Assembly (NCBI GenBank): GCA_038727705.1
Contig: JAVYVJ010000002.1
Coordinates: 359,051 to 423,050, forward strand
DNA from: Zestosphaera sp.
GTDB taxonomy: Archaea; Thermoproteota; Thermoprotei_A; Sulfolobales; NBVN01
Direction: 5' to 3'
DNA: 64,000 bases
Both the position numbers and the translations under genes were made by a program. Below the pieces are notes generated by a model. That model saw nothing but the letters and a program-made list of their open reading frames with translations, made no database searches and was not told the origin of the DNA. The stretch's first letter is position 1. Each line of letters starts with the position of its first letter. Shown in pieces: positions 2,702-60,109 of the stretch.

Positions 2702-3613
2702 GTGACCATAGTTAATGAGTTTAGTGTAGCCTCCCCGCTGGATGCTAGTGAAGTTCTCACCATCCTAGCGGACCTCCAGCTCCACTTGAGTCTGTGGCCC
2801 GTTCTGGAGTCTCTAGCTGAGGTGTTAAGCGATAATGAGGTCTTAGCTGATCTGAAGGTGGGGGATTCCCTGAGCCGGGTACACCTTAAGATGAGCACAA
2901 GTAAAGAGGGTGAAGTTGCGGTCATAACGGTGGAGGGGCACGATGACTTGAGTTTGGAACTCAGGCTGAGCGTCGTGGGCAGGAAGTTGGTCGGCAGGCC
3001 CCTGACCTTAATTAGGGGGAGGATCGTGGTCAAGTCGGCCAACGAGAAGGCTCTGAAGCCGTACATTAAGACATTCGTTGAAGCCTATCAGAACAGGCTG
3101 ATCGGCGCGCTACCTACAGTACTTGATGCGTGGAGGAAGGGACTCGTCAAGAAGATGGGAGTGAGGGCCGCGGCACCGCCGCCGGTGGAGGCAGCCCCTA
3201 AAGAGCTACCTAAACGTGAGGAACTTCCTAAGCCTGAACTCAAGCTGGAGGGTGTGAACGTAGTAACGAGCCCCACAGCCCTTGATGATGAGGTGCTGGT
3301 AAGCAACATAATCCTTAAGTCCCACATCTTAAGCACGGTGAAGGAAGAGCTCAGCGGCCTCGAACTCCTGAGGAGATTAAGCGAAATGTACACCGGAACG
3401 GGACTTAAAACCCTCTACACACTCGCGATAGACGCTGAGGGCAACAAAGTCAGGGTATTGTTTAGAGATGATGCCATCGTGGGAGTTAGGGTTGAGCTAC
3501 GGGAAGGCACCATCATTAGCGGCGTAGATGCGGTGAAGAGGCTTAAGGAGCTGGACAAGAAGGTCTGGAGGATCTCCACCTATTCAATACCTAAGGAACT
3601 GTTTTCATCGTGA
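2702..3613 (+). CDS. hypothetical two-domain protein (N-terminal SRPBCC/CoxG-like fold suspected, Pro/Glu/Lys-rich linker, C-terminal alpha/beta domain)
   Basis: 303-aa ORF with good coding look. The linker is AAAPPPVEAAPKELPKREELPKPELK. The N-terminal 150 aa has the alternating beta/long terminal helix pattern of SRPBCC proteins, which is inference only. Confidence 0.55.
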   Translation: MTIVNEFSVASPLDASEVLTILADLQLHLSLWPVLESLAEVLSDNEVLADLKVGDSLSRVHLKMSTSKEGEVAVITVEGHDDLSLELRLSVVGRKLVGRPLTLIRGRIVVKSANEKALKPYIKTFVEAYQNRLIGALPTVLDAWRKGLVKKMGVRAAAPPPVEAAPKELPKREELPKPELKLEGVNVVTSPTALDDEVLVSNIILKSHILSTVKEELSGLELLRRLSEMYTGTGLKTLYTLAIDAEGNKVRVLFRDDAIVGVRVELREGTIISGVDAVKRLKELDKKVWRISTYSIPKELFSS

Positions 3614-3855
3614 TCTTAATGACCCCTCGATGCCCCTCCGCCGTTTCGGCATCACTAACGCAAAAAAACGTTAATTGACGCGGCTGGAAGAGCTTCGGCG
3701 AGCTTAGTGAGAGAGGTAACACGTCCCTCATTCATAGTTATGTCATGTGAGGAATTCTTGCCGCTAGGTAGGGAAGGAGATCCGCTCTTAAGCCGGGGTC
3801 TTCTCCCACACTAAAAGGCAGATTTTATCCGTTGAGACCGTGTGCGTCAACAGTC

Positions 3856-4533
3856 CTAAACCTTCTCGTGGTGCGGCCCCACGCTTCTTGAAATGTTCCT
3901 GATGAGGAAGCGAAGGGATTCAAGCAGTTCACGCACTGAACCTAACTCAGGTTTGGACACCACCTCAACTGCATTAAGCTCCTTGTATGCTGAAAGCTTG
4001 TAGATGGGTTTGGAGGTTGTGTCCACTATTCTGTTAAGCAGACCAACATCCTTAGGCTCCTCGTAGAAGACTTCGTAAATCCCTCTCGCAGTGCTTACTG
4101 TGGTCTTACTCAGCCTTTCTAGGCGTTCCCCAAGATCCTTTGCCAGGGTGTTCATAAGTCTTGACTCACCCCTCTTGACCGCGTGCAGATCCCTCAGAAC
4201 GTTTCTCCCGGTGAGCTCCAACATTATGGTTACCCTATCGTCGTGTCTCAACGCCTTGGCTACTGGGTAGTAGAAGAAGGAGTATCTGGGTGTGGTCGTG
4301 AGCAGTACGTAGGCCCTCCTCCCTTCACCGAGTTCGTACACGGCCTTATACCCGACGAGGTACCCTAGGAGGGTGTACTCCTTATCCCTAGGCCTCAGTT
4401 CCCTCTCCAACTCCTCAGTGAAATCCTTCATGAACTTAATCATCCTCCTCCTCATTCTGAAGTACCATAATGCGGCAGCGACCGACACTGCCATCAAAAC
4501 TGAGATCGCGATCGCTTCAAAGAGAGTGTTCAT
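3856..4533 (-). CDS. hypothetical N-terminally membrane-anchored protein (third gene of the ArsA-like operon)
   Basis: 225 aa with a single N-terminal TM (AIAISVLMAVSVAAALWYF) followed by RMRRR and a soluble domain. Its start overlaps the stop of the ArsA-like gene (ATGA). Confidence 0.6.
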   Translation of the reverse strand: MNTLFEAIAISVLMAVSVAAALWYFRMRRRMIKFMKDFTEELERELRPRDKEYTLLGYLVGYKAVYELGEGRRAYVLLTTTPRYSFFYYPVAKALRHDDRVTIMLELTGRNVLRDLHAVKRGESRLMNTLAKDLGERLERLSKTTVSTARGIYEVFYEEPKDVGLLNRIVDTTSKPIYKLSAYKELNAVEVVSKPELGSVRELLESLRFLIRNISRSVGPHHEKV

Positions 4534-5495
4534 GCATACCCCCTGACTACAACTACAGTGTCTCTTAACTTAACTATATCCTCAAGACTGGAAGGTGGGC
4601 TGCTGGCATGCGGGATCATGATGGACCTGCATTCTATAGACCTGAACTCCCTGAGCGTCTCCGCCTGCTCGGCGTAAGTTCCCAGACTAGCGGCCACTTC
4701 ATCTGGAAGGACTTTATTCATCACTAAGAGCTTAGGTTTAATGGTTAACTCGTTTTCTAGGAAGTTGAGGATCTCCCTCAGCTCGAACATCGGCAGGGGT
4801 TCCGGGTTCGTGACTACTATGTACGACGTTCTTAAGGGATTGCTTAGCACCTCCTTGACTCTGGAGTATGTGTTCTTCAGTTCGTAGAGTTTTTTCAACG
4901 CTGGGTCCCTCATCTCGAACTCCTTGCCGAGGGTCTTAGCTATGACGTATCTGAGTGACACTATCCTCTCCCTGATGTTGATCAGCTTGTCGAGCCAGAG
5001 CAGGTAGAGCCTCGGCAGGGCTAGGGTTCTGAGGGAGACGCCTGTCGGCGGCGTGTCGACCACGACATGCTTATAACCTTTGTCCCCGTACGTGTCAGCC
5101 AGCCACCTTAGAAACACCTCCTCCTCCACCCCTGGCGCATACTTCATGGCTTTAGTGACGTCCTCCAGGTTGAGGACTGTAAGTGACGGAAACATCTCAG
5201 CCATGAGGTCTGAGTAGCTCGACATCAACTTCCTGGCTGAAGCCTCTATGTCCAGCTGGCATGCCGAGAGGTTCTCCGCAACCTCCACGGTCTCCATAGG
5301 CTTGCGTAAGCCAAGGTACTTCAGTATGTGTTTAGCCGGGTCGAAACTCACTAGGAGGGTCCTGCCCTGAGACCTCAACTCGTTAGCTACTAAAATGGAT
5401 GTCGAGGTCTTGCCGACGCCGCCCTTCCCCAACACCACGATTACGTGAGGCTCCCCTTCAAGGGGCTTAAGCAACTCAGTTAAAACACTCACCAC
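4530..5495 (-). CDS. ArsA/Get3-family P-loop ATPase
   Basis: Deviant Walker A GKGGVGKTS, DPAKH (DPAH-like), PGVEEE switch region, DTPPTGVSLRTL (DTAPTGHTL-like). 321 aa. Confidence 0.85.
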   Translation of the reverse strand: MVSVLTELLKPLEGEPHVIVVLGKGGVGKTSTSILVANELRSQGRTLLVSFDPAKHILKYLGLRKPMETVEVAENLSACQLDIEASARKLMSSYSDLMAEMFPSLTVLNLEDVTKAMKYAPGVEEEVFLRWLADTYGDKGYKHVVVDTPPTGVSLRTLALPRLYLLWLDKLINIRERIVSLRYVIAKTLGKEFEMRDPALKKLYELKNTYSRVKEVLSNPLRTSYIVVTNPEPLPMFELREILNFLENELTIKPKLLVMNKVLPDEVAASLGTYAEQAETLREFRSIECRSIMIPHASSPPSSLEDIVKLRDTVVVVRGYA

Positions 5496-19241: not shown

Positions 19242-22200
19242 CTACTCCCTCACCTGAGGGACGGGATGTGTCTTGAGGTACCTGTAGAGGATGAACGCGA
19301 CGAGGGCCAGAAACACCGCGACGAGGGCTAGTATACCGTACCTCAACGTAGCGTCGACCGCCTGGGGGGCTGTCACCGTTGGCGTGGTGGTTGCGACGGG
19401 GGTCACGCCGAACTCCCTAACTAACACCTCCTCCTCATTGTAGGGGTTTCTATAGCTCAACACAAGCTTGACGGTCTCCACGTACGTGCTCAACTTGAGT
19501 GAGACCGCGAAACTTGTTTGTGAGGATGGATCCACATCACCGACGAATACCTCACTGCCCTCCACACCCCCGCCGACTAGCCTAGCCACTATCCTCTGAG
19601 CCTGAGCATTCCCAACGTTTATCAGAGTGCTTGAGAGCCTGACCTCATTCCCGGTGTAGATCACTTTAACGTCTGTCAGCATGAGCTTTATGTAGGGCTC
19701 AATGCTAACGGTGAAGGTCGAGTTCATAACCTGCCTCAAACCGTTCGACGTGGTGTACACCACAGCAGCCATGAACGGAATGTTACCGTAGGTTATGGAG
19801 GCAGGGACTTGGGGCGAGGGTAGCGGATTGATGTAGACAGGCATCTTGAGGGTTACCACGTTGCCCGGATCCAGCCTGCTTATGTATATTGGTGTGGTTT
19901 TGGGGAGGATGACGTAAGACCCGTATGGGTAGACTGCTAGGTAGACGTTGTAGGCGGGGGCGGTGCCCACGTTGAGAAGTTTAAGGGTCATGTTGGCCTC
20001 TCTTGACTCCCTAAAGCTCAGGGAACCCTCACTCCATACCTGAATCAGTATGGGGGAGCCTAACACGCTTACAGGTACCCTGAAACTCTGTGTTCTCAAG
20101 TTACCCCAGTGGTCTATGAAGGAGACGTTGAATAACGCGTAGTACGTCCCGGGACCCGCTGAGAGAACATTCAGCGGTAGTGAGAAGTAGATGTAGTCAC
20201 CCTTACTGAACTGCGTCTGCGTCGGCGTCTGGATGCTCATTGCCTGCGTGTAGTACCTAAGCAGTTCCTGAATCTGAGACCCACCGATCTGCTGAGTCGG
20301 TAGTTGAGGTAGTGACGAGACGGCCAGTATCCTTACTCTACTCTCATTATTTATTGAGGACGTGAGGCCCTCAGGCAGTGAAACGTCGGCCACCAACCCT
20401 CTGACGGAGGGGTACTCTGAGTTCCTCAGCGTTATGAGGAGGACGTTTCCGTAAGTCCCAGGCTCCGCCGGCCTCCCAGCCCAGGATGCCGTGATTAACT
20501 CGAGTCCTTGCAGGACGCCGTTAACGAGTATAGGCACCCTCAGCTCCTCACCAACCCCCACGCCCTCACCACCTGAGTTGACTAGGTAGGTGAGTCTTAA
20601 TCTAGCCTCGTACGTGCCTGGATTCAACGCACCCACGTTCAACTGGAAGGTCAGCTGAGCGACTTGGTTAGGTTGCACAGGTCCGGGCAGGTATGCTGTG
20701 TTCAGGCCCTTACTGGCTGTGAAGCCCTCCGGGAGTGCGAGCTCGCCCAGGATTGACGTCACTGGGTACGGATAACGGTTGATTAACGATATTACGTAGG
20801 TGGCGTTCTGCGTGTTGGGGTATGTGGGGTTGTTATTCAACCAAGCAAACCCTATTAAGCTTAGGTTCCCTAGCTCTTTAGGTGGGTACCTACTCACAGG
20901 TATTGAGGCGGGGTAATTCATGCTCACCGGGATGTTGGAGCCGTACATCGTCACGTAATAGTTGACGGAGATCGTCAAGTTTAGGCGGTTCCCGCTAAAC
21001 ATAGTCAGGTTAACATATGGGGTCAATCTGCATGAAGTGCCCGGACTCAAGTACGTGGAGCAAACCCCTTCACCGTCCACCACACCAACGGTGTGAGGGG
21101 CTGACACTCTAACGTAAACGTAGCTCGCCGCATACCTGCCCAAATTAGTTATCTCCACGTGGAGTGGTTGCATGCCCTCCATCCCGTAGGAGACGGTCGG
21201 TGCAGCGGTGCCCCACCACACCTTACTCAAGACTACGTCGGCGCTGTATTCGTCCGGGCTGGAGATTGGGACCTGGAGGTTCAGGTCTACGGTGCGGTAA
21301 AGTATTGACGTGCCTGTCCTGCTGGAGTACGTAACCGTGAGCAATGAGTCGTAGAGGCCTGGCCTGGCGTTAGGGCTTATGTCGACAACCATCTGCAGTA
21401 GGCATGTAGCTCCGGGTTGAACTCCTGCGAAGCAAGCCCCCCCGATCGACTTCACAGCGACGAATTCCGGGAGCTGAGGGAGGACTTTGAGGACCGTGAG
21501 GGGATCCTGCCCCAGGTTGCTTAACCTCACGTTAAGCACTACGTCCTTCGAGGATGGGAGGGCCTCCGCCACACCCCCCTGATAACTCCATTCAACACTG
21601 CTTAACCTGAGGACGTCCTCCACAACCACCGCGGCCCTGACAGGTAGTGTGATGTTGAACCAGAACTCGGCACCACGGTATGAGGCAAGCCCCTCTAGAC
21701 GGAGGCTAGCCAATATGATGTCTGGGCGGTTCGAGACATTAAGTACTATATCGCTGAAGGTCAGTGTGGCGGTATCACCATAACTTAACTGCCGTCCAAG
21801 AGGGAGCACCACATACTCCCTCCCGTCCCTCGCTCTGAGACCCTCAGGAAGGTTTAAGATAGCGACCAACGAATTTATCGTTGCCAAATCCTTATTCTGC
21901 AGTGTAACGAAGAGCGAGAGAGCTCTTCCCTCAGGGTATGCGACACCATAACTCCAGCCGCTGTCAACCACGACCAGTTTAGGTGCCGCACCCCCGCTAA
22001 CCCGCACGGCTGAAGCAACTACGACCCTACCGTCGTAAGTGACGCCGTCCTCAGTTCTTGAGGTTACGTTGAGATCGAGGTAGACACTGTAAGAGCCGGG
22101 CGTCGCTGACGGAGGTATGTCAACACCCCCGACCTCGAGGACATACGTGCTACCACTAGGCATTGACGGTAGTTGAACCCTAATCTTTTCAGGCTTTAGG

Positions 22201-22841
22201 GGTTGTTGAAGTGTTATAGTGCCGTACCCTCCCATAATGTCTGAGGGGCCTGGATTCCTGACTCTGATGCTCAAGGCAGCGCCCCGAGTGCCGGGGAACA
22301 CTTGATCCGACCCCCACCAAGAATCCACAACCTCTAACGAGGTGGCAGGGTAGTGGCTAACTATAATCGGCACCTCGAGCGTCACGTAGTTTATTTCCGA
22401 ACCGAGTCTGTAGGTTACATCAACCTGCAGGCGGTAGATCCCAGGCCACACGTCGTTTGAGACGTCAACTTGAGTCCTAAGCTGGAAGACCTCCCCAGGG
22501 CCGAACCTGTTGACCCATGAACCGTTTGTTGAGAGGGCTGAGACGCAGGAGGACACTCCGGCAGAGAATTTGAAACCCCACGGAAGCCTGAAGCACCCCT
22601 GAACCCCAGTAATGTATTCGCTCTCATTATTCCTGAGTTCAAGGACTATACGTACGTTCTTACTGCCTGGATATATTGAGGAGCCGCCCGCCGCGTTGTA
22701 TTGGGTCGAACTGACGAGAGTGAGGGCGTTTTGACCTCCCATCACGTAGAGGGGTGCCACCAAAGCAAGCACCAGCGAAGCTAACACCATGCTTAAGACG
22801 GACAGCGAGAGAGCCTCCTTCCTCAGCTCCACCCCCATCAC
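19242..22841 (-). CDS. 1,199-aa cell-surface protein built from about 9-10 CARDB/NEW3-like beta-sandwich repeats, with N-terminal signal/anchor and C-terminal TM anchor
   Basis: N-terminal hydrophobic segment. The recurring motif PG-x-Y-x3-L/V-x-V/L-x-Y (PGIYRLQVDVTY, PGSYSVYLDLNV, PGLYDSLLTVTY, PGTYEARLRLTY, PGTYYALFNVSF) appears roughly every 110-130 aa. A Thr-rich stalk (TPVATTTPTVTAPQ) is followed by a TM (ILALVAVFLALVAFILY). Its stop is 2 nt from the permease start. Confidence 0.8.
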   Translation of the reverse strand: MMGVELRKEALSLSVLSMVLASLVLALVAPLYVMGGQNALTLVSSTQYNAAGGSSIYPGSKNVRIVLELRNNESEYITGVQGCFRLPWGFKFSAGVSSCVSALSTNGSWVNRFGPGEVFQLRTQVDVSNDVWPGIYRLQVDVTYRLGSEINYVTLEVPIIVSHYPATSLEVVDSWWGSDQVFPGTRGAALSIRVRNPGPSDIMGGYGTITLQQPLKPEKIRVQLPSMPSGSTYVLEVGGVDIPPSATPGSYSVYLDLNVTSRTEDGVTYDGRVVVASAVRVSGGAAPKLVVVDSGWSYGVAYPEGRALSLFVTLQNKDLATINSLVAILNLPEGLRARDGREYVVLPLGRQLSYGDTATLTFSDIVLNVSNRPDIILASLRLEGLASYRGAEFWFNITLPVRAAVVVEDVLRLSSVEWSYQGGVAEALPSSKDVVLNVRLSNLGQDPLTVLKVLPQLPEFVAVKSIGGACFAGVQPGATCLLQMVVDISPNARPGLYDSLLTVTYSSRTGTSILYRTVDLNLQVPISSPDEYSADVVLSKVWWGTAAPTVSYGMEGMQPLHVEITNLGRYAASYVYVRVSAPHTVGVVDGEGVCSTYLSPGTSCRLTPYVNLTMFSGNRLNLTISVNYYVTMYGSNIPVSMNYPASIPVSRYPPKELGNLSLIGFAWLNNNPTYPNTQNATYVISLINRYPYPVTSILGELALPEGFTASKGLNTAYLPGPVQPNQVAQLTFQLNVGALNPGTYEARLRLTYLVNSGGEGVGVGEELRVPILVNGVLQGLELITASWAGRPAEPGTYGNVLLITLRNSEYPSVRGLVADVSLPEGLTSSINNESRVRILAVSSLPQLPTQQIGGSQIQELLRYYTQAMSIQTPTQTQFSKGDYIYFSLPLNVLSAGPGTYYALFNVSFIDHWGNLRTQSFRVPVSVLGSPILIQVWSEGSLSFRESREANMTLKLLNVGTAPAYNVYLAVYPYGSYVILPKTTPIYISRLDPGNVVTLKMPVYINPLPSPQVPASITYGNIPFMAAVVYTTSNGLRQVMNSTFTVSIEPYIKLMLTDVKVIYTGNEVRLSSTLINVGNAQAQRIVARLVGGGVEGSEVFVGDVDPSSQTSFAVSLKLSTYVETVKLVLSYRNPYNEEEVLVREFGVTPVATTTPTVTAPQAVDATLRYGILALVAVFLALVAFILYRYLKTHPVPQVRE

Positions 22842-52746: not shown

Positions 52747-53562
52747 ATGCTACTGGCTAACTGGAGGCTGGTCAGGGAGCTTCTGCAGGCGGTCGATTTA
52801 GCTGTGGAGGTGGTGGACGGCAGGGATCCCTCCTCGACTAGGAGCAGGAGGTTCGAGAGCATGTGCGGGGAGCTGGACGTTAAGTACGTCCTAGCGCTGA
52901 ATAAGGCTGACCTCGTACCCCGCGACGTCGGGCGTGCGTGGGTTAACTACTTCAGGGAGGTTGAGCACGTAAATGCAGTCCTAATCTCGGCTCAGAGGAG
53001 GTTAGGCACTCTGAGGTTGAGGAGGGTCGTCAGATCTCTGTGCAGGAAGAAGCCGCTCATAGTCGGTGTTTTCGGCGTTCCCAAAGTCGGCAAGTCGACC
53101 CTCATCAATACGTGGGCCGGCAGACACGCTGCCGGAACCTCGCCACACCCCGGCACCCCCGGCTACACCAAGAAGGCACAGCTCTTCAACGTCGGCAGCG
53201 GCGTCTACCTCCTTGACACTCCAGGGATACTGCCCGTAGAGGGTGATGAGGTGGAGATCGCCGTTAGGATGAACCCCATCGACAACATAAGAAACCCGGT
53301 GGCTGTGGCCGTGTCCTTGATTAGGAGGGTGGTGAAGTATAACCCTCGAGCATTCAGCGAGGCGTACGAGATAGAGAGCGCAGACCCTGACGTGATACTC
53401 AGGGAGTTAGCTCTCAGGAGGGGATGGATCTACAGGAGCGACAGAGAACCCGTAATCAGTGAGTCAGCTAAGCTGATAATACGCGACTACCTGGAAGGCA
53501 GGATAAGGTTCTACGTGATGCCCCCCTCAAGCTTCGGCGAAGTTAGGCCTCAACGATCTTAA
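52747..53562 (+). CDS. circularly permuted GTPase (YlqF/RbgA-like ribosome-biogenesis GTPase)
   Basis: Motif order is G4 (LNKADL), then G1 (GVPKVGKSTLIN), then G3 (LLDTPGI), which is the cpGTPase hallmark. Confidence 0.8.
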   Translation: MLLANWRLVRELLQAVDLAVEVVDGRDPSSTRSRRFESMCGELDVKYVLALNKADLVPRDVGRAWVNYFREVEHVNAVLISAQRRLGTLRLRRVVRSLCRKKPLIVGVFGVPKVGKSTLINTWAGRHAAGTSPHPGTPGYTKKAQLFNVGSGVYLLDTPGILPVEGDEVEIAVRMNPIDNIRNPVAVAVSLIRRVVKYNPRAFSEAYEIESADPDVILRELALRRGWIYRSDREPVISESAKLIIRDYLEGRIRFYVMPPSSFGEVRPQRS

Positions 53563-54811
53563 GTATCGAGCTCTTGTCAAGCGCGTTAACCATTAGATAC
53601 TTATCGCTCAACGCCCTCAGGTCTTTATTGTCGCCTTGAATCATTACAGAGGAGAGTCTGGCGTTAGCCTCTCTAAGCTTACGCCTTAAAGTGGTTACGG
53701 AGAGCGCGTCCTCACCATCCGTTATCACCACAATGTCGGAATCCCTCTTAACGAGGCCGCTACCAACTATGTCCTCACACGCTGTCACGATCGCCTTAGT
53801 TATGTCAGTACCTCCACCGCTCTTGACCCTGGCTAAGTTTTTGAGTAACTCAAGGAACTCGGTAGGGCTCGCACGCCTGGACACCTTAATCAGGTCGTGC
53901 GGCATGCCGTCAAAGAACCTCATGTAGAACTCACGAACCTCCCTCCTAGACTTTATCAGGAGGGCTATAGCTGTTGCCTTAGCCCAATCTATCTTCTCAC
54001 CCTCCATGCTCCCCGACTTGTCTGTGAGAAGGTAGAGGGGGCCTAGGGACTTGCTCACCTTCTTGTCGTAGAGCAGGAGCTTGGACTCAGTGTAGCTCAG
54101 GAGGAGATATTTTGTCGGCAACGCTAGTTGCGCGGGAACCAGCCTCTCCAAATCATCGCCCAGGTCGTACCCGTCGAACTCCCCCCTGTTAAACCTGTCA
54201 TACCTCTTTCTAGCTTTCCTGGTGATGTCGGGTATTAATGAGAGGACCTCCAATATCTTGCTTACGTCCACGCTCCTCGACAACCTAAGGATCTTCTCCG
54301 AGTCCTCGTCCAGATCGAACTCACTCCCCACACCGGGTTGCAACCCCGACATGTAGAGTCTCTCAATATTCTTCATGGTCTCAGCCTCCTGAACGCTATT
54401 CCTCAGGGACTCCCTAACCACGGACTTCAGCGCGTTGCTGTTTATGCTGCCTGAATCCCTCGAGGTCAGGAGCTCCCTCCTCTCATCGAGCAATTCTACG
54501 AGGTACTGGATTACGGAGATCGAGATGAGAGTGGATATGAATGAGTTCAGGATTGTATGTTGCTTGAGTTTGACGAGCTCCTCCGATTCGCTGACGGCCT
54601 TGACGAGGCTGTAGTGGAGGCCGCCCCCCTCATGCTCCTCCACAACTATGGCGTGAGGCAGGTAGAGGATGTAGAAGAGATCGGTAGCTAGATCCGTGGT
54701 CAGGAGACTGTGCCTAAGACCCAACTTAGCCGAGAGCTTAACTATCTTCTCCCCCCTATAGCGAACCACAGGATCCTCATAATCGATGCCCCTTAAGAAA
54801 CCCCCGCTCAA
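53543..54811 (-). CDS. VWA-domain protein (ViaA/CoxE-like partner of the MoxR-type ATPase)
   Basis: C-terminal VWA with the MIDAS motif LLTDKSGSMEG plus downstream GGGTD and VVITDGED. Its start overlaps the ATPase stop by 4 nt. Confidence 0.8.
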   Translation of the reverse strand: MSGGFLRGIDYEDPVVRYRGEKIVKLSAKLGLRHSLLTTDLATDLFYILYLPHAIVVEEHEGGGLHYSLVKAVSESEELVKLKQHTILNSFISTLISISVIQYLVELLDERRELLTSRDSGSINSNALKSVVRESLRNSVQEAETMKNIERLYMSGLQPGVGSEFDLDEDSEKILRLSRSVDVSKILEVLSLIPDITRKARKRYDRFNRGEFDGYDLGDDLERLVPAQLALPTKYLLLSYTESKLLLYDKKVSKSLGPLYLLTDKSGSMEGEKIDWAKATAIALLIKSRREVREFYMRFFDGMPHDLIKVSRRASPTEFLELLKNLARVKSGGGTDITKAIVTACEDIVGSGLVKRDSDIVVITDGEDALSVTTLRRKLREANARLSSVMIQGDNKDLRALSDKYLMVNALDKSSILKIVEA

Positions 54812-57060
54812 ACCCTATCAGCCCTCCTGCCCACTAACTCCGTAATGCTGCTCACCAAACTCAGGACATCCTCGCCGAGCCTCAGGACCTGAGGATCCTG
54901 GGACTCCCTCATGATGCTGAGGATCCTCGCCTTAGTCACCTCCAGCTCCCTCTCTATAGTTTCGAACTTCGCAGCCACGAACGAGCTCTCTATCCCCTCC
55001 AGCGACTTCACGTACTGCAGCAACTCCTTCAGGTTAGTCTTTATCTCACTCAACTCCCTCAAGTACTTGTAGGAGGTCTTCAATTCCTCCGCAAGAACTG
55101 CGTTAACCTTCTCGAGATCGTCCCACTCACGCGTTGCCACGTACTTTACGGTGAGCAGGTCCTCCTCAACCGCGTACCTCCTCCCACCTATTAACGCGTT
55201 GGCGGCGATCACCTTCAACGATTTCCCCTTACGTCTGTCAGTTAGGTGGATCCCCCTACTCTCTAGGGCGGCGAAGAGCCTCAACAGCTTCCCCTCAACA
55301 CCACTTAAATCCACTTCATAGAGGGAGGCGTTAATCCTTTTCAGCTCGTCAACGCTCAGGATCCTGCCCCCATCACCTGCCTTACTCCCTAGCGTGTTCG
55401 CTCTCTCCAACTCCCACGAGGCTCTGAGGAGACCTCTCCATAAATCCTCCTGGACAGGTCTGACGAAGTGTCTTAGAAGGAATCTATCGTACACCGACTG
55501 GATCTCAGGGTCTTCGGGCACCTCGTTACTGGCTCCGAAAAGCGTCCACAGATCAACCCTCAACTCCGTGAAGCCATCGTACAGCATCCTCTCCTGAAGT
55601 AGAGTGTTCAGGGCGTTCAATATGGCTGAGTTGGCTTTGAAGATCTCGTCTAGGAAGGCTATCTGCGCATCAGGCAACTTGCCCGCGGTTAACCTGACGT
55701 ACCTGCCGTCCTCCAGGGCTTTAATGTCGAGAGGGCCGAACAGCTCCGAAGGTTCCGTGTACTTGGTCAGCAGGTACTTGAAGAACTTAGCGTTCAGGAG
55801 CTCGGCCGCCCTCCTAACCAGGGCTGACTTAGCTGTGTTGTGGGAGAGGAGTCCGTTAGTGAAGAATGAGTGTGTATCCGGCACGTGAAAGTCGTAAACC
55901 CTTACCCACCCCTCAAGCCTTCTAACGCTCTTGACCTCATCCCACTCGAAGCCTGCGACGTGCATCCCCCCAGCACGGCACTCCATCCTCAATGACCCCC
56001 CAAACTTATGCCGGAGGGTGTCAAGCCCTACCATCTCAACGAGCCTCCGGAGGTTACACGACCCCTCCACGCTGAGGACGTAGCCGCCGTACGCACTGCG
56101 GTCGCGTATGGAGGAGAGCACGCCATACCTCAGCAGAAGTATTTGAACACCCTCTAAGAACGTCCTGCTTCTACCCCTCAGGGTCAAACACGCTCTGGAG
56201 CCCCACTCTAAGACACTACCGCACTCTAAAACACTCCTCAGAAACGCTGCAGAGACTCTGTCCGGTGAGGCGAGGATCGACCAAGGCACTCGTTCCCTCC
56301 CCCTCCCAGCAAGCCACTTAAACAGCTTGACTAAGTACCCTGAACTATACTTAACTATCTGTGAGGAACGTGGCTGGATCACTCGAGGCTCTAAGTTGAA
56401 TAAGTCCTTCATGAGCGTCTCGATTCTCCCACGTAACTCCCCCTCATCAATGCCGACCCTGAACCCTACGGAGTAGTTGCTTAGGTAGCTACCTCTCATG
56501 ACGAACGCTCCTAAAACCTCGGCCAGCCTCTCATCCAATACGCCAACACTCCTAACGCCCGACCGCTTAAGCCTCACGCCAAGCAGTTCAGCGCTCGGGA
56601 TGCTTACGTAATGTGTTGGTGAGGGTAGTTGCGTTAAAACCCTGACCTTATCACCCCTCCTGAGATCCCTCATGCTGACCCAGCCTCTATCAGTCAGCAC
56701 CGGATGGTTTGGCGTTCCGCGAAGTCTGAAACCCCTTCCTGTAATAACCTCGTACGTCTCCCAGACATCGTACACGTGGAGTTCAGTGGCCCTACCGGGG
56801 GGGAAGACGGGAAAGTCCGCTATGTAGACCCCGGGCACGAGGTTCTTCGCCACATCGTCTAAGTAGAGTAGCTTGCCATCCTCTGAGGAGATGATTGTAT
56901 CTCCTGTAACGCAGCCCGGCTCCCCTACGAGGAGGGCGTGCTCGCCTGTGAGGAGGGCTAAGACTACCACACGCGACTCCTCATCCCTGCCCACGAAAGG
57001 TCTCTTAAGCTCCTCCTCAAACTTCTGAACCCTAGTAGCTATATCCCGAAGCCCAGACAC
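54808..57060 (-). CDS. RavA/MoxR-like AAA+ ATPase precursor containing an intein in the Walker A loop
   Basis: The exteins read FVGRDEESRVVVLALLTGEHALLVGEPG | TAKSALVRRAAELL...FGPLDIKALEDGRYVRLTAGKLPDAQIAFLDEIFKANSAILNALNTLLQER. Both are RavA-like blocks (Walker A GxPGxAKS, Walker B FLDEI). Confidence 0.9.
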   Translation of the reverse strand: MSGLRDIATRVQKFEEELKRPFVGRDEESRVVVLALLTGEHALLVGEPGCVTGDTIISSEDGKLLYLDDVAKNLVPGVYIADFPVFPPGRATELHVYDVWETYEVITGRGFRLRGTPNHPVLTDRGWVSMRDLRRGDKVRVLTQLPSPTHYVSIPSAELLGVRLKRSGVRSVGVLDERLAEVLGAFVMRGSYLSNYSVGFRVGIDEGELRGRIETLMKDLFNLEPRVIQPRSSQIVKYSSGYLVKLFKWLAGRGRERVPWSILASPDRVSAAFLRSVLECGSVLEWGSRACLTLRGRSRTFLEGVQILLLRYGVLSSIRDRSAYGGYVLSVEGSCNLRRLVEMVGLDTLRHKFGGSLRMECRAGGMHVAGFEWDEVKSVRRLEGWVRVYDFHVPDTHSFFTNGLLSHNTAKSALVRRAAELLNAKFFKYLLTKYTEPSELFGPLDIKALEDGRYVRLTAGKLPDAQIAFLDEIFKANSAILNALNTLLQERMLYDGFTELRVDLWTLFGASNEVPEDPEIQSVYDRFLLRHFVRPVQEDLWRGLLRASWELERANTLGSKAGDGGRILSVDELKRINASLYEVDLSGVEGKLLRLFAALESRGIHLTDRRKGKSLKVIAANALIGGRRYAVEEDLLTVKYVATREWDDLEKVNAVLAEELKTSYKYLRELSEIKTNLKELLQYVKSLEGIESSFVAAKFETIERELEVTKARILSIMRESQDPQVLRLGEDVLSLVSSITELVGRRADRV
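55837..56913 (-). mobile_element. 359-aa intein with a LAGLIDADG-type endonuclease domain
   Basis: Cys1 (TGC at 56913-56911) in CVTGDTIISS (block A); GTPNHPVLT (block B); LAGLIDADG-like helices LAEVLGAFVMRGS and AAFLRSVLECGS; VYDFHVPDTHSFFTNGLLSHN (blocks F/G, terminal Asn at 55839-55837); +1 Thr. Confidence 0.85.
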
Positions 57061-57221: not shown

Positions 57222-57581
57222 ATGAAGACTTTCTGCGAGGTGTTCGTGAAGCACGTGCTACCTTCGTTGAGGCTCTACCTAGCCGTGAAGATGGTCAGTG
57301 AACACGGCTTCAGCCAGCTGGAGGCATCTCGACTGTTGGGGATTTCCCAACCCCTAGTTAATTATGTGGTGAATAAGCGGAGGAAACCCAAGATGATTGA
57401 GAGGCTCACTAGTATGGATCACCTTAAGAGCGAGCTCGACAGGATCGCCAAGGATTTGGCTGAGGGGAGGGTTAAGTCTGAGAGCCTTGCATGCGACCTC
57501 TGCGTAATCCTTAGGAGGGAGGGCGTCATAGAGCAGATCGCCAGAGACTTAAGATACGGCTTATGCGTCTGTGACGATTAG
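57222..57581 (+). CDS. HTH transcriptional regulator with C-terminal Cys pairs (COG2522-like), paralogue of 23567..23992
   Basis: VLPSLRLYLAVKMVSEHGFSQLEASRLLGISQPLVNYVVNKRRKP plus a C-terminal CDLC...CVC. Confidence 0.65.
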   Translation: MKTFCEVFVKHVLPSLRLYLAVKMVSEHGFSQLEASRLLGISQPLVNYVVNKRRKPKMIERLTSMDHLKSELDRIAKDLAEGRVKSESLACDLCVILRREGVIEQIARDLRYGLCVCDD

Positions 57582-60003: not shown

Positions 60004-60064
60004 GTGAGACCCTAAGACAAGCGAGCGCAACCTAGTGGGGCCGCGGGGATTTGAACCCCGGACC
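60004..60064. repeat. direct repeat copy B (32-nt flank plus positions 45-73 of the intact tRNA-Pro)
   Basis: See copy A. The repeat ends in the variable loop of the tRNA. Confidence 0.9.
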
Positions 60065-60109
60065 ACGGGGACCCGAACCCCGCATTCTACCAAGCTAAAC
60101 TACGGCCCC
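60036..60109 (-). tRNA. tRNA-Pro (anticodon CGG)
   Basis: The reverse strand reads GGGGCCGTAGTTTAGCTTGGTAGAATGCGGGGTTCGGGTCCCCGTGGTCCGGGGTTCAAATCCCCGCGGCCCCA. It has a 7-bp acceptor, a 4-bp D stem (two G-U pairs), the anticodon arm CGGGG/TTCGGGT/CCCCG with G37, and the T arm CGGGG/TTCAAAT/CCCCG. There is no intron and no encoded CCA. A TTATATAT box lies about 25-30 nt upstream. Confidence 0.9.

Follow-up and report, generated by a model that had tools for sequence, protein, structure and literature searches.

A predicted class-1 intein with substituted endonuclease residues in the P-loop of a MoxR-type AAA+ ATPase from Zestosphaera

The interrupted ATPase gene

Analysis of a 64,000-nucleotide stretch of the genome of the archaeon Zestosphaera sp. 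(contig JAVYVJ010000002.1, positions 359,051 to 423,050; hereafter the window) revealed a gene for a MoxR-type AAA+ ATPase whose Walker A loop, or P-loop, is divided by an intein-like insert of 359 residues. The gene spans 54808..57060 on the (-) strand of the window, as do all of the parts described below unless another strand is given. It begins with a GTG codon, its stop codon is counted in these coordinates, and it is the only open reading frame (ORF) there. The encoded precursor of 750 amino acids is identical to an NCBI entry named 'MAG: AAA family ATPase [Zestosphaera sp.]' (P0001 in our set), which makes the window part of the chromosome of a hot-spring archaeon of the Desulfurococcaceae/Sulfolobales. 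The N-extein comprises residues 1–49 (56914..57060) and ends in GEPG, the first half of the Walker A motif; the insert occupies residues 50–408 (55837..56913); and the C-extein of 342 residues (54808..55836) supplies the remainder of the AAA+ core along with the AAA lid and a helical region at its C terminus. With slashes marking the junctions, the translation reads ...EHALLVGEPG/CVTGDTIISSEDG ... FFTNGLLSHN/TAKSALVRRAAELL... The sequence of the intein-less site is CTCCTCGTAGGGGAGCCGGGCACAGCTAAGTCAGCCCTGGTT, which is split at the insertion point as CTCCTCGTAGGGGAGCCGGGC/ACAGCTAAGTCAGCCCTGGTT.

Excision of the insert in silico yields a protein of 391 residues in which the Walker A motif GEPGTAKS is contiguous, the junction peptide expected after ligation being LLVGEPGTAKSALV. 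In the presence of the insert, the Pfam family bpMoxR (PF20030) is matched in two stretches with a score of 187.5 bits; following excision, the match becomes a single stretch of 208.4 bits covering profile positions 2–189. The spliced extein also matches AAA_5 (PF07728) at 100.7 bits and AAA_lid_8 (PF17868) at 26.3 bits. In the whole ORF, bpMoxR, AAA_5, AAA_lid_8, Intein_splicing and LAGLIDADG_3 all score above their gathering thresholds.

Splicing residues, domains and fold of the insert

The insert consists of two splicing regions flanking an endonuclease-like region. The N-terminal splicing region, intein residues 1–99 (56617..56913), is marked out by invariant residues and by strong purifying selection (see below); it contains the Cys1 codon (56911..56913) and block B, T67-P-N-H70 of the sequence GTPNHP (56704..56715). 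The C-terminal splicing region, residues 321–359 (55837..55953), contains block F, VRVYDFHVPDTHSFFT, and block G, which ends ...LLSHN with His358-Asn359 encoded at 55837..55842. It is followed by Thr+1 (55834..55836), by translation the first residue of the C-extein sequence TAKS, so that the C-terminal splicing block together with its +1 residue reads VYDFHVPDTHSFFTNGLLSHN/T. Between the two lies the LAGLIDADG endonuclease-like region, residues 100–320 (55954..56616), which is delimited by the PF14528 match, the secondary structure of the model, Foldseek and its own selection pattern.

Intein_splicing (PF14890) matches the insert with an E-value of 3e-11 and 43.8 bits against a cut-off of 35.8, LAGLIDADG_3 (PF14528) with an E-value of 4.6e-7 and 30.4 bits against a cut-off of 22.5, and TIGR01443 (intein_Cterm) with 26.6 bits against a cut-off of 15.6. 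The insert matches, moreover, the intein portions of many NCBIfam equivalogs of intein-containing proteins, among them DnaB, IF-2, RNR, V-ATPase A and RFC. The junctions, of the form GxPG/C...HN/T[AG]K[ST], are kept in 44/44 insert-bearing relatives, and Thr+1 is present in all 44. An alignment of 24 intein sequences with a mean identity of 49% has C1, T67, N69, H70, P71, V339, Y340, D341, H348, F350, G354, S357, H358 and N359 as invariant residues.

An AlphaFold2 model of the intein, built on the same alignment, has a mean predicted local distance difference test score (pLDDT) of 90.6 and a predicted template modelling score (pTM) of 0.91. Assignment of its secondary structure by DSSP reveals two α-β-β-α-β-β-α halves in the endonuclease-like region. 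The best Foldseek matches in the PDB are the endonuclease-bearing TliVMA and PhoVMA inteins (7qss, 7qsu and 7qst; E-values 1e-25 to 1e-20, the best 1.5e-25 to TliVMA), followed by PI-TkoII (2cw7), PI-PfuI (1dq3) and PI-SceI (1vde) and, lower down, by I-DmoI, I-Tsp061I, WhiA and the mini-inteins 1am2 and 4oz6. The domain and Foldseek scores are far beyond chance. The predicted HINT fold of the insert is thus supported by PF14890, by the model and by Foldseek. TliVMA, PhoVMA, PI-TkoII, PI-PfuI and PI-SceI share with the window intein a HINT domain into which a two-fold LAGLIDADG endonuclease is inserted (Foldseek E-values 1e-25 to 1e-11, TM up to 0.75; phmmer E-value 5e-9), but they differ from it in sequence (11–20% identity), in host and in insertion site.

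These results bear out every element of an earlier sequence-only reading of the window, with one refinement given below. The placement of the insert at residues 50–408 (359 residues, 55837..56913) of the 750-residue ORF is exact by translation; its removal, which had been predicted to restore GEPGTAKS and a 391-residue protein, joins the bpMoxR match into one stretch; and the splicing blocks that had been named (Cys1, GTPNHP, the terminal His-Asn and Thr+1) are all present in the translation. The proposed HINT and LAGLIDADG domains are both recovered above profile cut-offs, by PF14890 and PF14528, and the two LAGLIDADG-like helices that had been pointed out correspond to the PF14528 match and to helices 128–140 and 218–232 of the model.

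Empty sites in orthologous loci

To define the state of the insertion site in related archaea, one genome per GTDB species was scanned, giving 80 orthologous loci. The motif GEPG[TV]AKS is uninterrupted in 66/80, the insert is carried by 11/80, and 3/80 lie at contig ends, two of which still show the end of the intein. Among the intein-free loci is that of the sister lineage Zestosphaera tikiterensis NZ3 (L005), and the intein-free proteins P0044–P0047 have the same uninterrupted motif. In these orthologues the motif lies at the exact junction that the sequence-only reading had predicted, and the segment is not a conserved, unexcised domain of the family. Because the empty sites, the conservation of the junctions and the fold agree as three independent tests, we conclude that the insert is, as far as sequence can tell, a canonical class-1 intein that separates GEPG from TAKS in the Walker A loop.

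In a neighbour-joining tree of the exteins, the window protein falls in a clade of 19 sequences (P0001–P0015 and L001–L004). The intein is present in 19/19 members of this clade, and 19/19 have Arg in the first LAGLIDADG motif, while the sister lineage Z. tikiterensis is empty. The intein is thus fixed in the extein clade of the window.

The occupancy of the site has two further features. Several intein-free alleles (L008, L009, L015, L019, L062 and P0044) read GEPGVAKS, with Val at the would-be +1 position. An intein there could not splice without its nucleophile, which would in effect protect these alleles from productive invasion. In addition, P0061, a 666-residue metagenomic protein from Logan/ENA and a remote bpMoxR at 34% identity to the query, carries at the same P-loop position an intein of another kind, 268 residues long and without a LAGLIDADG match (GEPG/CLTGDTII...GFVVHN/TAKS). 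The P-loop site has therefore been invaded more than once, or by another intein type.

The LAGLIDADG catalytic positions

The two α-β-β-α-β-β-α half-domains of a LAGLIDADG endonuclease are present, as judged from PF14528, the model and the Foldseek matches to I-DmoI and I-Tsp061I. The catalytic acids of these enzymes sit at the ends of the LAGLIDADG helices, where they bind the catalytic metal ions. In the window intein neither helix ends in an acidic residue. Motif 1, LAEVLGAFVMRG (intein residues 130–141, 56491..56526), has Arg140 at the catalytic position (codon 56494..56496), and motif 2, FLRSVLECGS (residues 224–233, 56215..56244), has Gly232 (codon 56218..56220). Arg140 and Gly232 are the final residues of helices 128–140 and 218–232 in the model, and a phmmer alignment to the TliVMA intein, whose structure has been solved, places an Asp of that intein against each.

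Glu and Asp are kept at the metal-binding positions in a minority of MoxR inteins (P0016, P0018, P0019, L032, P0028 and P0040; hereafter the E/D alleles), with motifs of the form ...FVAEG... and ...FLRGLFEGDG..., and in all of the CDC48 relatives described below. P0041 retains the Asp only, its motif 1 being FVAGG. Within the window clade the motif-2 catalytic residue varies between Gly, Cys, Ala and Thr, and several extein clades have Arg at the motif-1 position. The substitution of the catalytic acids in both helices, which the sequence-only reading had suspected, is therefore evident both from the E and D of the relatives and from the D and D of TliVMA. Since both acids are gone and one is replaced by a cation, DNA cleavage by the window intein is very unlikely, and we infer that its nuclease activity has been lost.

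Selection and divergence

Ratios of non-synonymous to synonymous substitution (dN/dS) were calculated pairwise by the method of Nei and Gojobori for the closest pairs only, distant pairs being synonymous-saturated with dS undefined. Between the window and L081, the closest relative for which DNA is available, the ratio is 0.070 in the extein and 0.054 in the splicing region; for L001–L002, the corresponding values are 0.077 and 0.110. Overall, the exteins lie at 0.05–0.08 and the splicing regions at 0.05–0.14. The endonuclease region gives 0.280 (bootstrap 95% interval 0.185–0.395) for the window and L081, and 0.306 (0.206–0.488) for L001–L002, compared with 0.106 (0.063–0.172) for the E/D pair L032–L084; the intervals do not overlap between this pair and the window clade. 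The ratio of non-synonymous divergence in the endonuclease region to that in the extein is about 5 in the clade with the dead endonuclease and about 1 in the live pair. In every member of the window clade this region is 222–232 residues long and has no stop or frameshift. Constraint on it is thus relaxed about 3-fold, yet dN/dS remains well below 1: the domain is immobilised and relaxed, not freely decaying. The sequence-only reading had spoken of a fixed, decaying intein; the first term holds for the whole clade of 19, but the second overstates the case for a region of full length, free of stops and with dN/dS of 0.28–0.31.

The comparison of intein with host points the same way. The window and L081 are 61% identical in the endonuclease region compared with 90% in the extein, and across the window clade the LAGLIDADG domains are 36–45% identical while the exteins have diverged to about 80% identity. 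An intein far more diverged than its host is expected where a relaxed element passes down vertically. The E/D alleles show the reverse. Their inteins are more alike than their hosts (67% versus 50% identity for P0016/P0028, 64% versus 45% for P0016/P0040, and 81% versus 70% for P0016/P0018), the extein of P0016 is 95–96% identical to the intein-free L006 and L007, and synonymous divergence between L032 and L084 is 0.40 in the intein and 1.53 in the extein. On these three grounds, namely the greater likeness of the inteins, the close empty alleles and the lower synonymous divergence of the intein, the E/D alleles bear the signatures of recent horizontal movement, or homing.

Foreign composition of the window intein was considered and rejected, the G+C content of the intein being 0.55 and that of the extein likewise 0.55. 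Because these values are equal and close to that of the window (0.537), there is no compositional sign of recent arrival, and the intein has been resident for a long time.

The homing cycle of selfish endonuclease genes, with its stages of invasion, fixation, degeneration and loss, was reportedly set out by Goddard and Burt for the yeast omega element and has, it is said, been applied to VMA1 inteins. The MoxR intein family includes E/D alleles close to empty ones, clades in which an intein with a dead endonuclease is fixed, and numerous empty sites. It thus displays the whole of this cycle, with the window copy at the stage 'fixed, endonuclease lost'. It differs from the model in that no mini-intein derivative of this lineage, lacking the homing endonuclease, was seen at the site, and in that the dead domain is still full-length with dN/dS of about 0.3.

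Splicing, loss of homing and the alternatives

Overall, we consider it highly probable that the window encodes a class-1 intein in the P-loop of a MoxR ATPase, with its splicing function intact and its endonuclease dead, and that it is fixed and vertically inherited. Splicing itself is strongly implied by the purifying selection on the exteins and the splicing blocks, since a host with 359 residues stuck in its P-loop would not stay so conserved. Following translation, the intein would fold and Cys1 would attack the peptide bond preceding it; the N-extein would then move to Thr+1, and cyclisation of Asn359 would free the intein, leaving a normal peptide bond in a 391-residue ATPase with an intact P-loop. 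ATP binding by the ATPase would be impossible before this point, and afterwards the spliced protein would work with the VWA protein encoded directly downstream. In this clade, the catalytic Glu has been replaced by Arg140 and the Asp by Gly232 and, because both catalytic acids are lost, the element would no longer be able to home. It would nevertheless persist, since precise deletion is rare and imprecise deletion would destroy the P-loop.

Certain observations weigh against this account. The N-terminal intein model TIGR01445 (intein_Nterm) scores 20.3, slightly short of its cut-off of 24.5. Synonymous divergence is high (dS 0.3–1.6) in the pairs used, so that the Nei–Gojobori ratios are approximate. 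The trees are by neighbour joining only; that of the inteins places the window subgroup nearer to the E/D group than to the rest of its extein clade, although distance trees cannot be relied upon where dead and live inteins differ in rate. Finally, a full-length endonuclease region under purifying selection at dN/dS of about 0.3 is not what is expected of junk awaiting deletion, though this residual constraint may, most simply, only reflect the need of the precursor to fold.

The last of these points bears on the alternative that a new role has preserved the dead LAGLIDADG domain, either in sequence-specific DNA binding after excision, in the manner of WhiA or maturase-type LAGLIDADG proteins, or in the conditional control of splicing or of MoxR activation. 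The upper 95% bounds on its dN/dS of 0.28–0.31 lie below 0.5, it has acquired no stops or consequential indels in a clade with extein identity down to about 80%, Arg recurs at the motif-1 catalytic position in several extein clades, and WhiA is among the Foldseek matches. Some constraint would be expected in any case, however, since an unfolded insert would block the splicing of a useful host protein; moreover, divergence is high over the whole surface (the 36–45% identity found across the clade), and the motif-2 residues (G, C, A and T) are not conserved within it. We regard a new role as unlikely. Improbable too, in our judgement, is the idea that the intein has been domesticated as a post-translational switch of a chaperone ATPase, by which activation of MoxR would be made conditional on temperature or another cue, or by which a DNA-binding protein would be released.

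It is harder still to sustain the proposal that the intein is an active mobile element that cuts intein-less MoxR alleles, for instance by means of other acids such as Glu230. This residue, the sixth of motif 2, shows almost no variation, and the domain is full length, confidently folded in the model and under purifying selection. Against this, both metal-binding positions are non-acidic (Arg and Gly) with the charge of motif 1 reversed, the region is held under about 3-fold weaker constraint than its counterpart in the E/D alleles, and in the window clade the intein has diverged far more than the extein, whereas in the E/D alleles it has diverged less; the clade shows no sign of recent transfer. 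The notion that the insert is never spliced, being a permanent lineage-specific domain or the mark of a disrupted pseudogene, can be set aside with near certainty, since a 359-residue domain in GxxGxxKS would abolish nucleotide binding, yet extein dN/dS is 0.05–0.08, the junction residues are kept in 44 sequences with the splicing nucleophiles and assisting residues invariant, and in orthologues the segment is missing precisely at the junction.

A lineage of P-loop inteins

The 359-residue insert was used as the query of an exhaustive HMMER search against 1.84 billion representative sequences, which returned 2524 matches at E<=1e-3 and nine at E<=1e-30. The best were a CDC48 protein (P0121, 236 bits) and a CbbQ/NorQ-type MoxR ATPase (P0122, 233 bits). 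Inspection of the junctions in the 35 best full-length matches revealed that most are at the same Walker A position, with the junctions GPPG/../TGKT, GPSG/../TGKS, GDPG/../TAKS (MCM-like), GPYG/../SGKS and GVPG/../CGKS. Because most of the inspected matches share this position, the window intein belongs to a lineage specialised on P-loop-coding DNA that has moved between paralogous and even unrelated nucleoside triphosphatases. P0122 itself (1069 residues, of CbbQ/NirQ/NorQ type) contains two inteins, the first at the P-loop (GPSG/C..SHN/TGKS) and 39% identical to that of the window.

The inteins of archaeal CDC48/VCP-like proteins (P0048–P0051 and P0121) are inserted, as in the window, between the fourth and fifth residues of Walker A (GPPG/C...SHN/TGKT). 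They align with the window intein over its whole length at 37–39% identity and share its C1, TxNH, VYDF..H..F..NG and SHN/T+1 blocks and its LAGLIDADG architecture; they differ in their host, CDC48 in place of MoxR, and in keeping Glu and Asp at the two catalytic positions. An allele 'Mka CDC48' has reportedly been listed in InBase. The 'site a' inteins of MCM and RFC also occupy the Walker A loop of AAA+ proteins, according to Novikova et al. (2016, Mol Biol Evol 33:783, PMC4760082). The MCM-like matches found here (GDPG/C...HN/TAKS) have nearly the same target peptide as the GEPG/TAKS of the window. The MCM and RFC inteins are only 27–33% identical to the window intein, and their hosts are replication proteins. 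The known clustering of inteins in P-loops, as treated by the same authors, is one into which the lineage fits well.

Novikova et al. (2016, PMC4760082) do not list MoxR among the 15 most frequent archaeal intein hosts, and the word MoxR is missing from their main text. A literature search, which did not extend to the full host tables of that study or to InBase, found no paper describing an intein in a MoxR ATPase or this allele; papers that name both inteins and MoxR appear to do so in separate connections. Public databases already assign the Pfam intein and LAGLIDADG domains to these proteins, although the NCBI name is merely 'AAA family ATPase'. In both intein and site, what we describe is a textbook case, ordinary though well documented as a fixed, immobilised element, and what is new is the host allele. 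The current understanding of inteins is unchanged by it. The list of intein hosts gains a MoxR–VWA chaperone ATPase, a non-replication protein, and a single intein lineage has hopped among the Walker A loops of the CDC48, CbbQ/NorQ-type MoxR, MCM-like and bpMoxR families of AAA+ proteins. The syntenic loci of hot-spring Thermoproteota constitute a compact natural data set on the homing cycle, with active-looking transferred alleles, fixed dead clades and empty sites. The label of a 750-residue 'AAA family ATPase' should be replaced by an annotation that records the intein in this gene, and a thermophilic intein with Thr at +1 could be a candidate splicing tool.

Host family and gene neighbourhood

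The extein has the Walker A motif GEPGTAKS, a Walker B motif in IAFLDEIF and an AAA lid, all as in the MoxR family of AAA+ proteins. The sequence-only reading had called it RavA-like, and this is right as a statement of similarity but not of equivalence: with the RavA equivalog model NF010054 of NCBIfam the extein reaches 164 bits where 681 are required, with positions 5–307 of 498 aligned. From its profile matches the protein would be best named a bpMoxR or MoxR–VWA family ATPase, RavA by similarity only.

MoxR genes are classically paired with a neighbouring gene for a VWA protein. Here, the gene directly downstream, at 53543..54811 (-), overlaps the stop of the ATPase gene by 4 bp and encodes a CoxE-like VWA protein of 422 residues with matches to VWA, VWA_2 and VWA_CoxE in Pfam and a MIDAS-type motif, DKSGS. 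A convergent gene for an RsgA-like GTPase comes after it. The VWA partner is conserved in all of the loci checked, and the order MoxR–VWA–GTPase is kept in intein-bearing and intein-free loci alike. An AAA_5/bpMoxR core, an AAA_lid_8 domain and an adjoining VWA protein with a MIDAS-type motif are common to the window pair, RavA–ViaA and other MoxR–VWA chaperone pairs. The window ATPase differs from the RavA of RavA–ViaA in that it falls outside the RavA equivalog, has no match to the LARA domain and has no adjoining third gene for a β-propeller protein. A PADLOC search for defence systems gave no match for the spliced ATPase or its VWA partner, and a reading of the extein as part of a 'bpMoxR conflict system' was therefore dropped; a β-propeller gene is not adjacent.

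Variations on this arrangement were seen at two loci. In Z. tikiterensis NZ3 (L005, 7128..7937), some 800 bp separate the MoxR and VWA genes, which abut or overlap in the other loci checked. In the metagenomic locus L085, the VWA gene (3088-4839 (+)) directly downstream of the intein-bearing MoxR gene of P0028 carries a mini-intein of about 140 residues (PF14890, 42.7 bits), which splits the MIDAS-type motif: the protein reads ...LYVLLDK/C...VVHN/SGSMDG, compared with LYLLTDKSGSMEG in the VWA protein of the window. Since the MoxR and the VWA protein of L085 each carry an intein, both partners are interrupted at active-site motifs.

Upstream of the MoxR gene and divergent from it is an ORF of 119 residues at 57222..57581 (+) with no Pfam match. 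An ORF occurs at the same place in L001, L002, L004 and L081, with 56–75% identity, and so this is a real small gene.

Other features of the window

No further intein was found by Pfam in the 13 other long ORFs of the window, which are ordinary chromosomal genes. One ORF, of 1199 residues at 19242..22841 (-), has NPCBM_assoc/NEW3 and CARDB domains and probably encodes a large surface or S-layer-associated protein, unrelated to the intein. The sole tRNA gene detected in the window is that of tRNA-Pro(CGG), at 60035..60109 (-).

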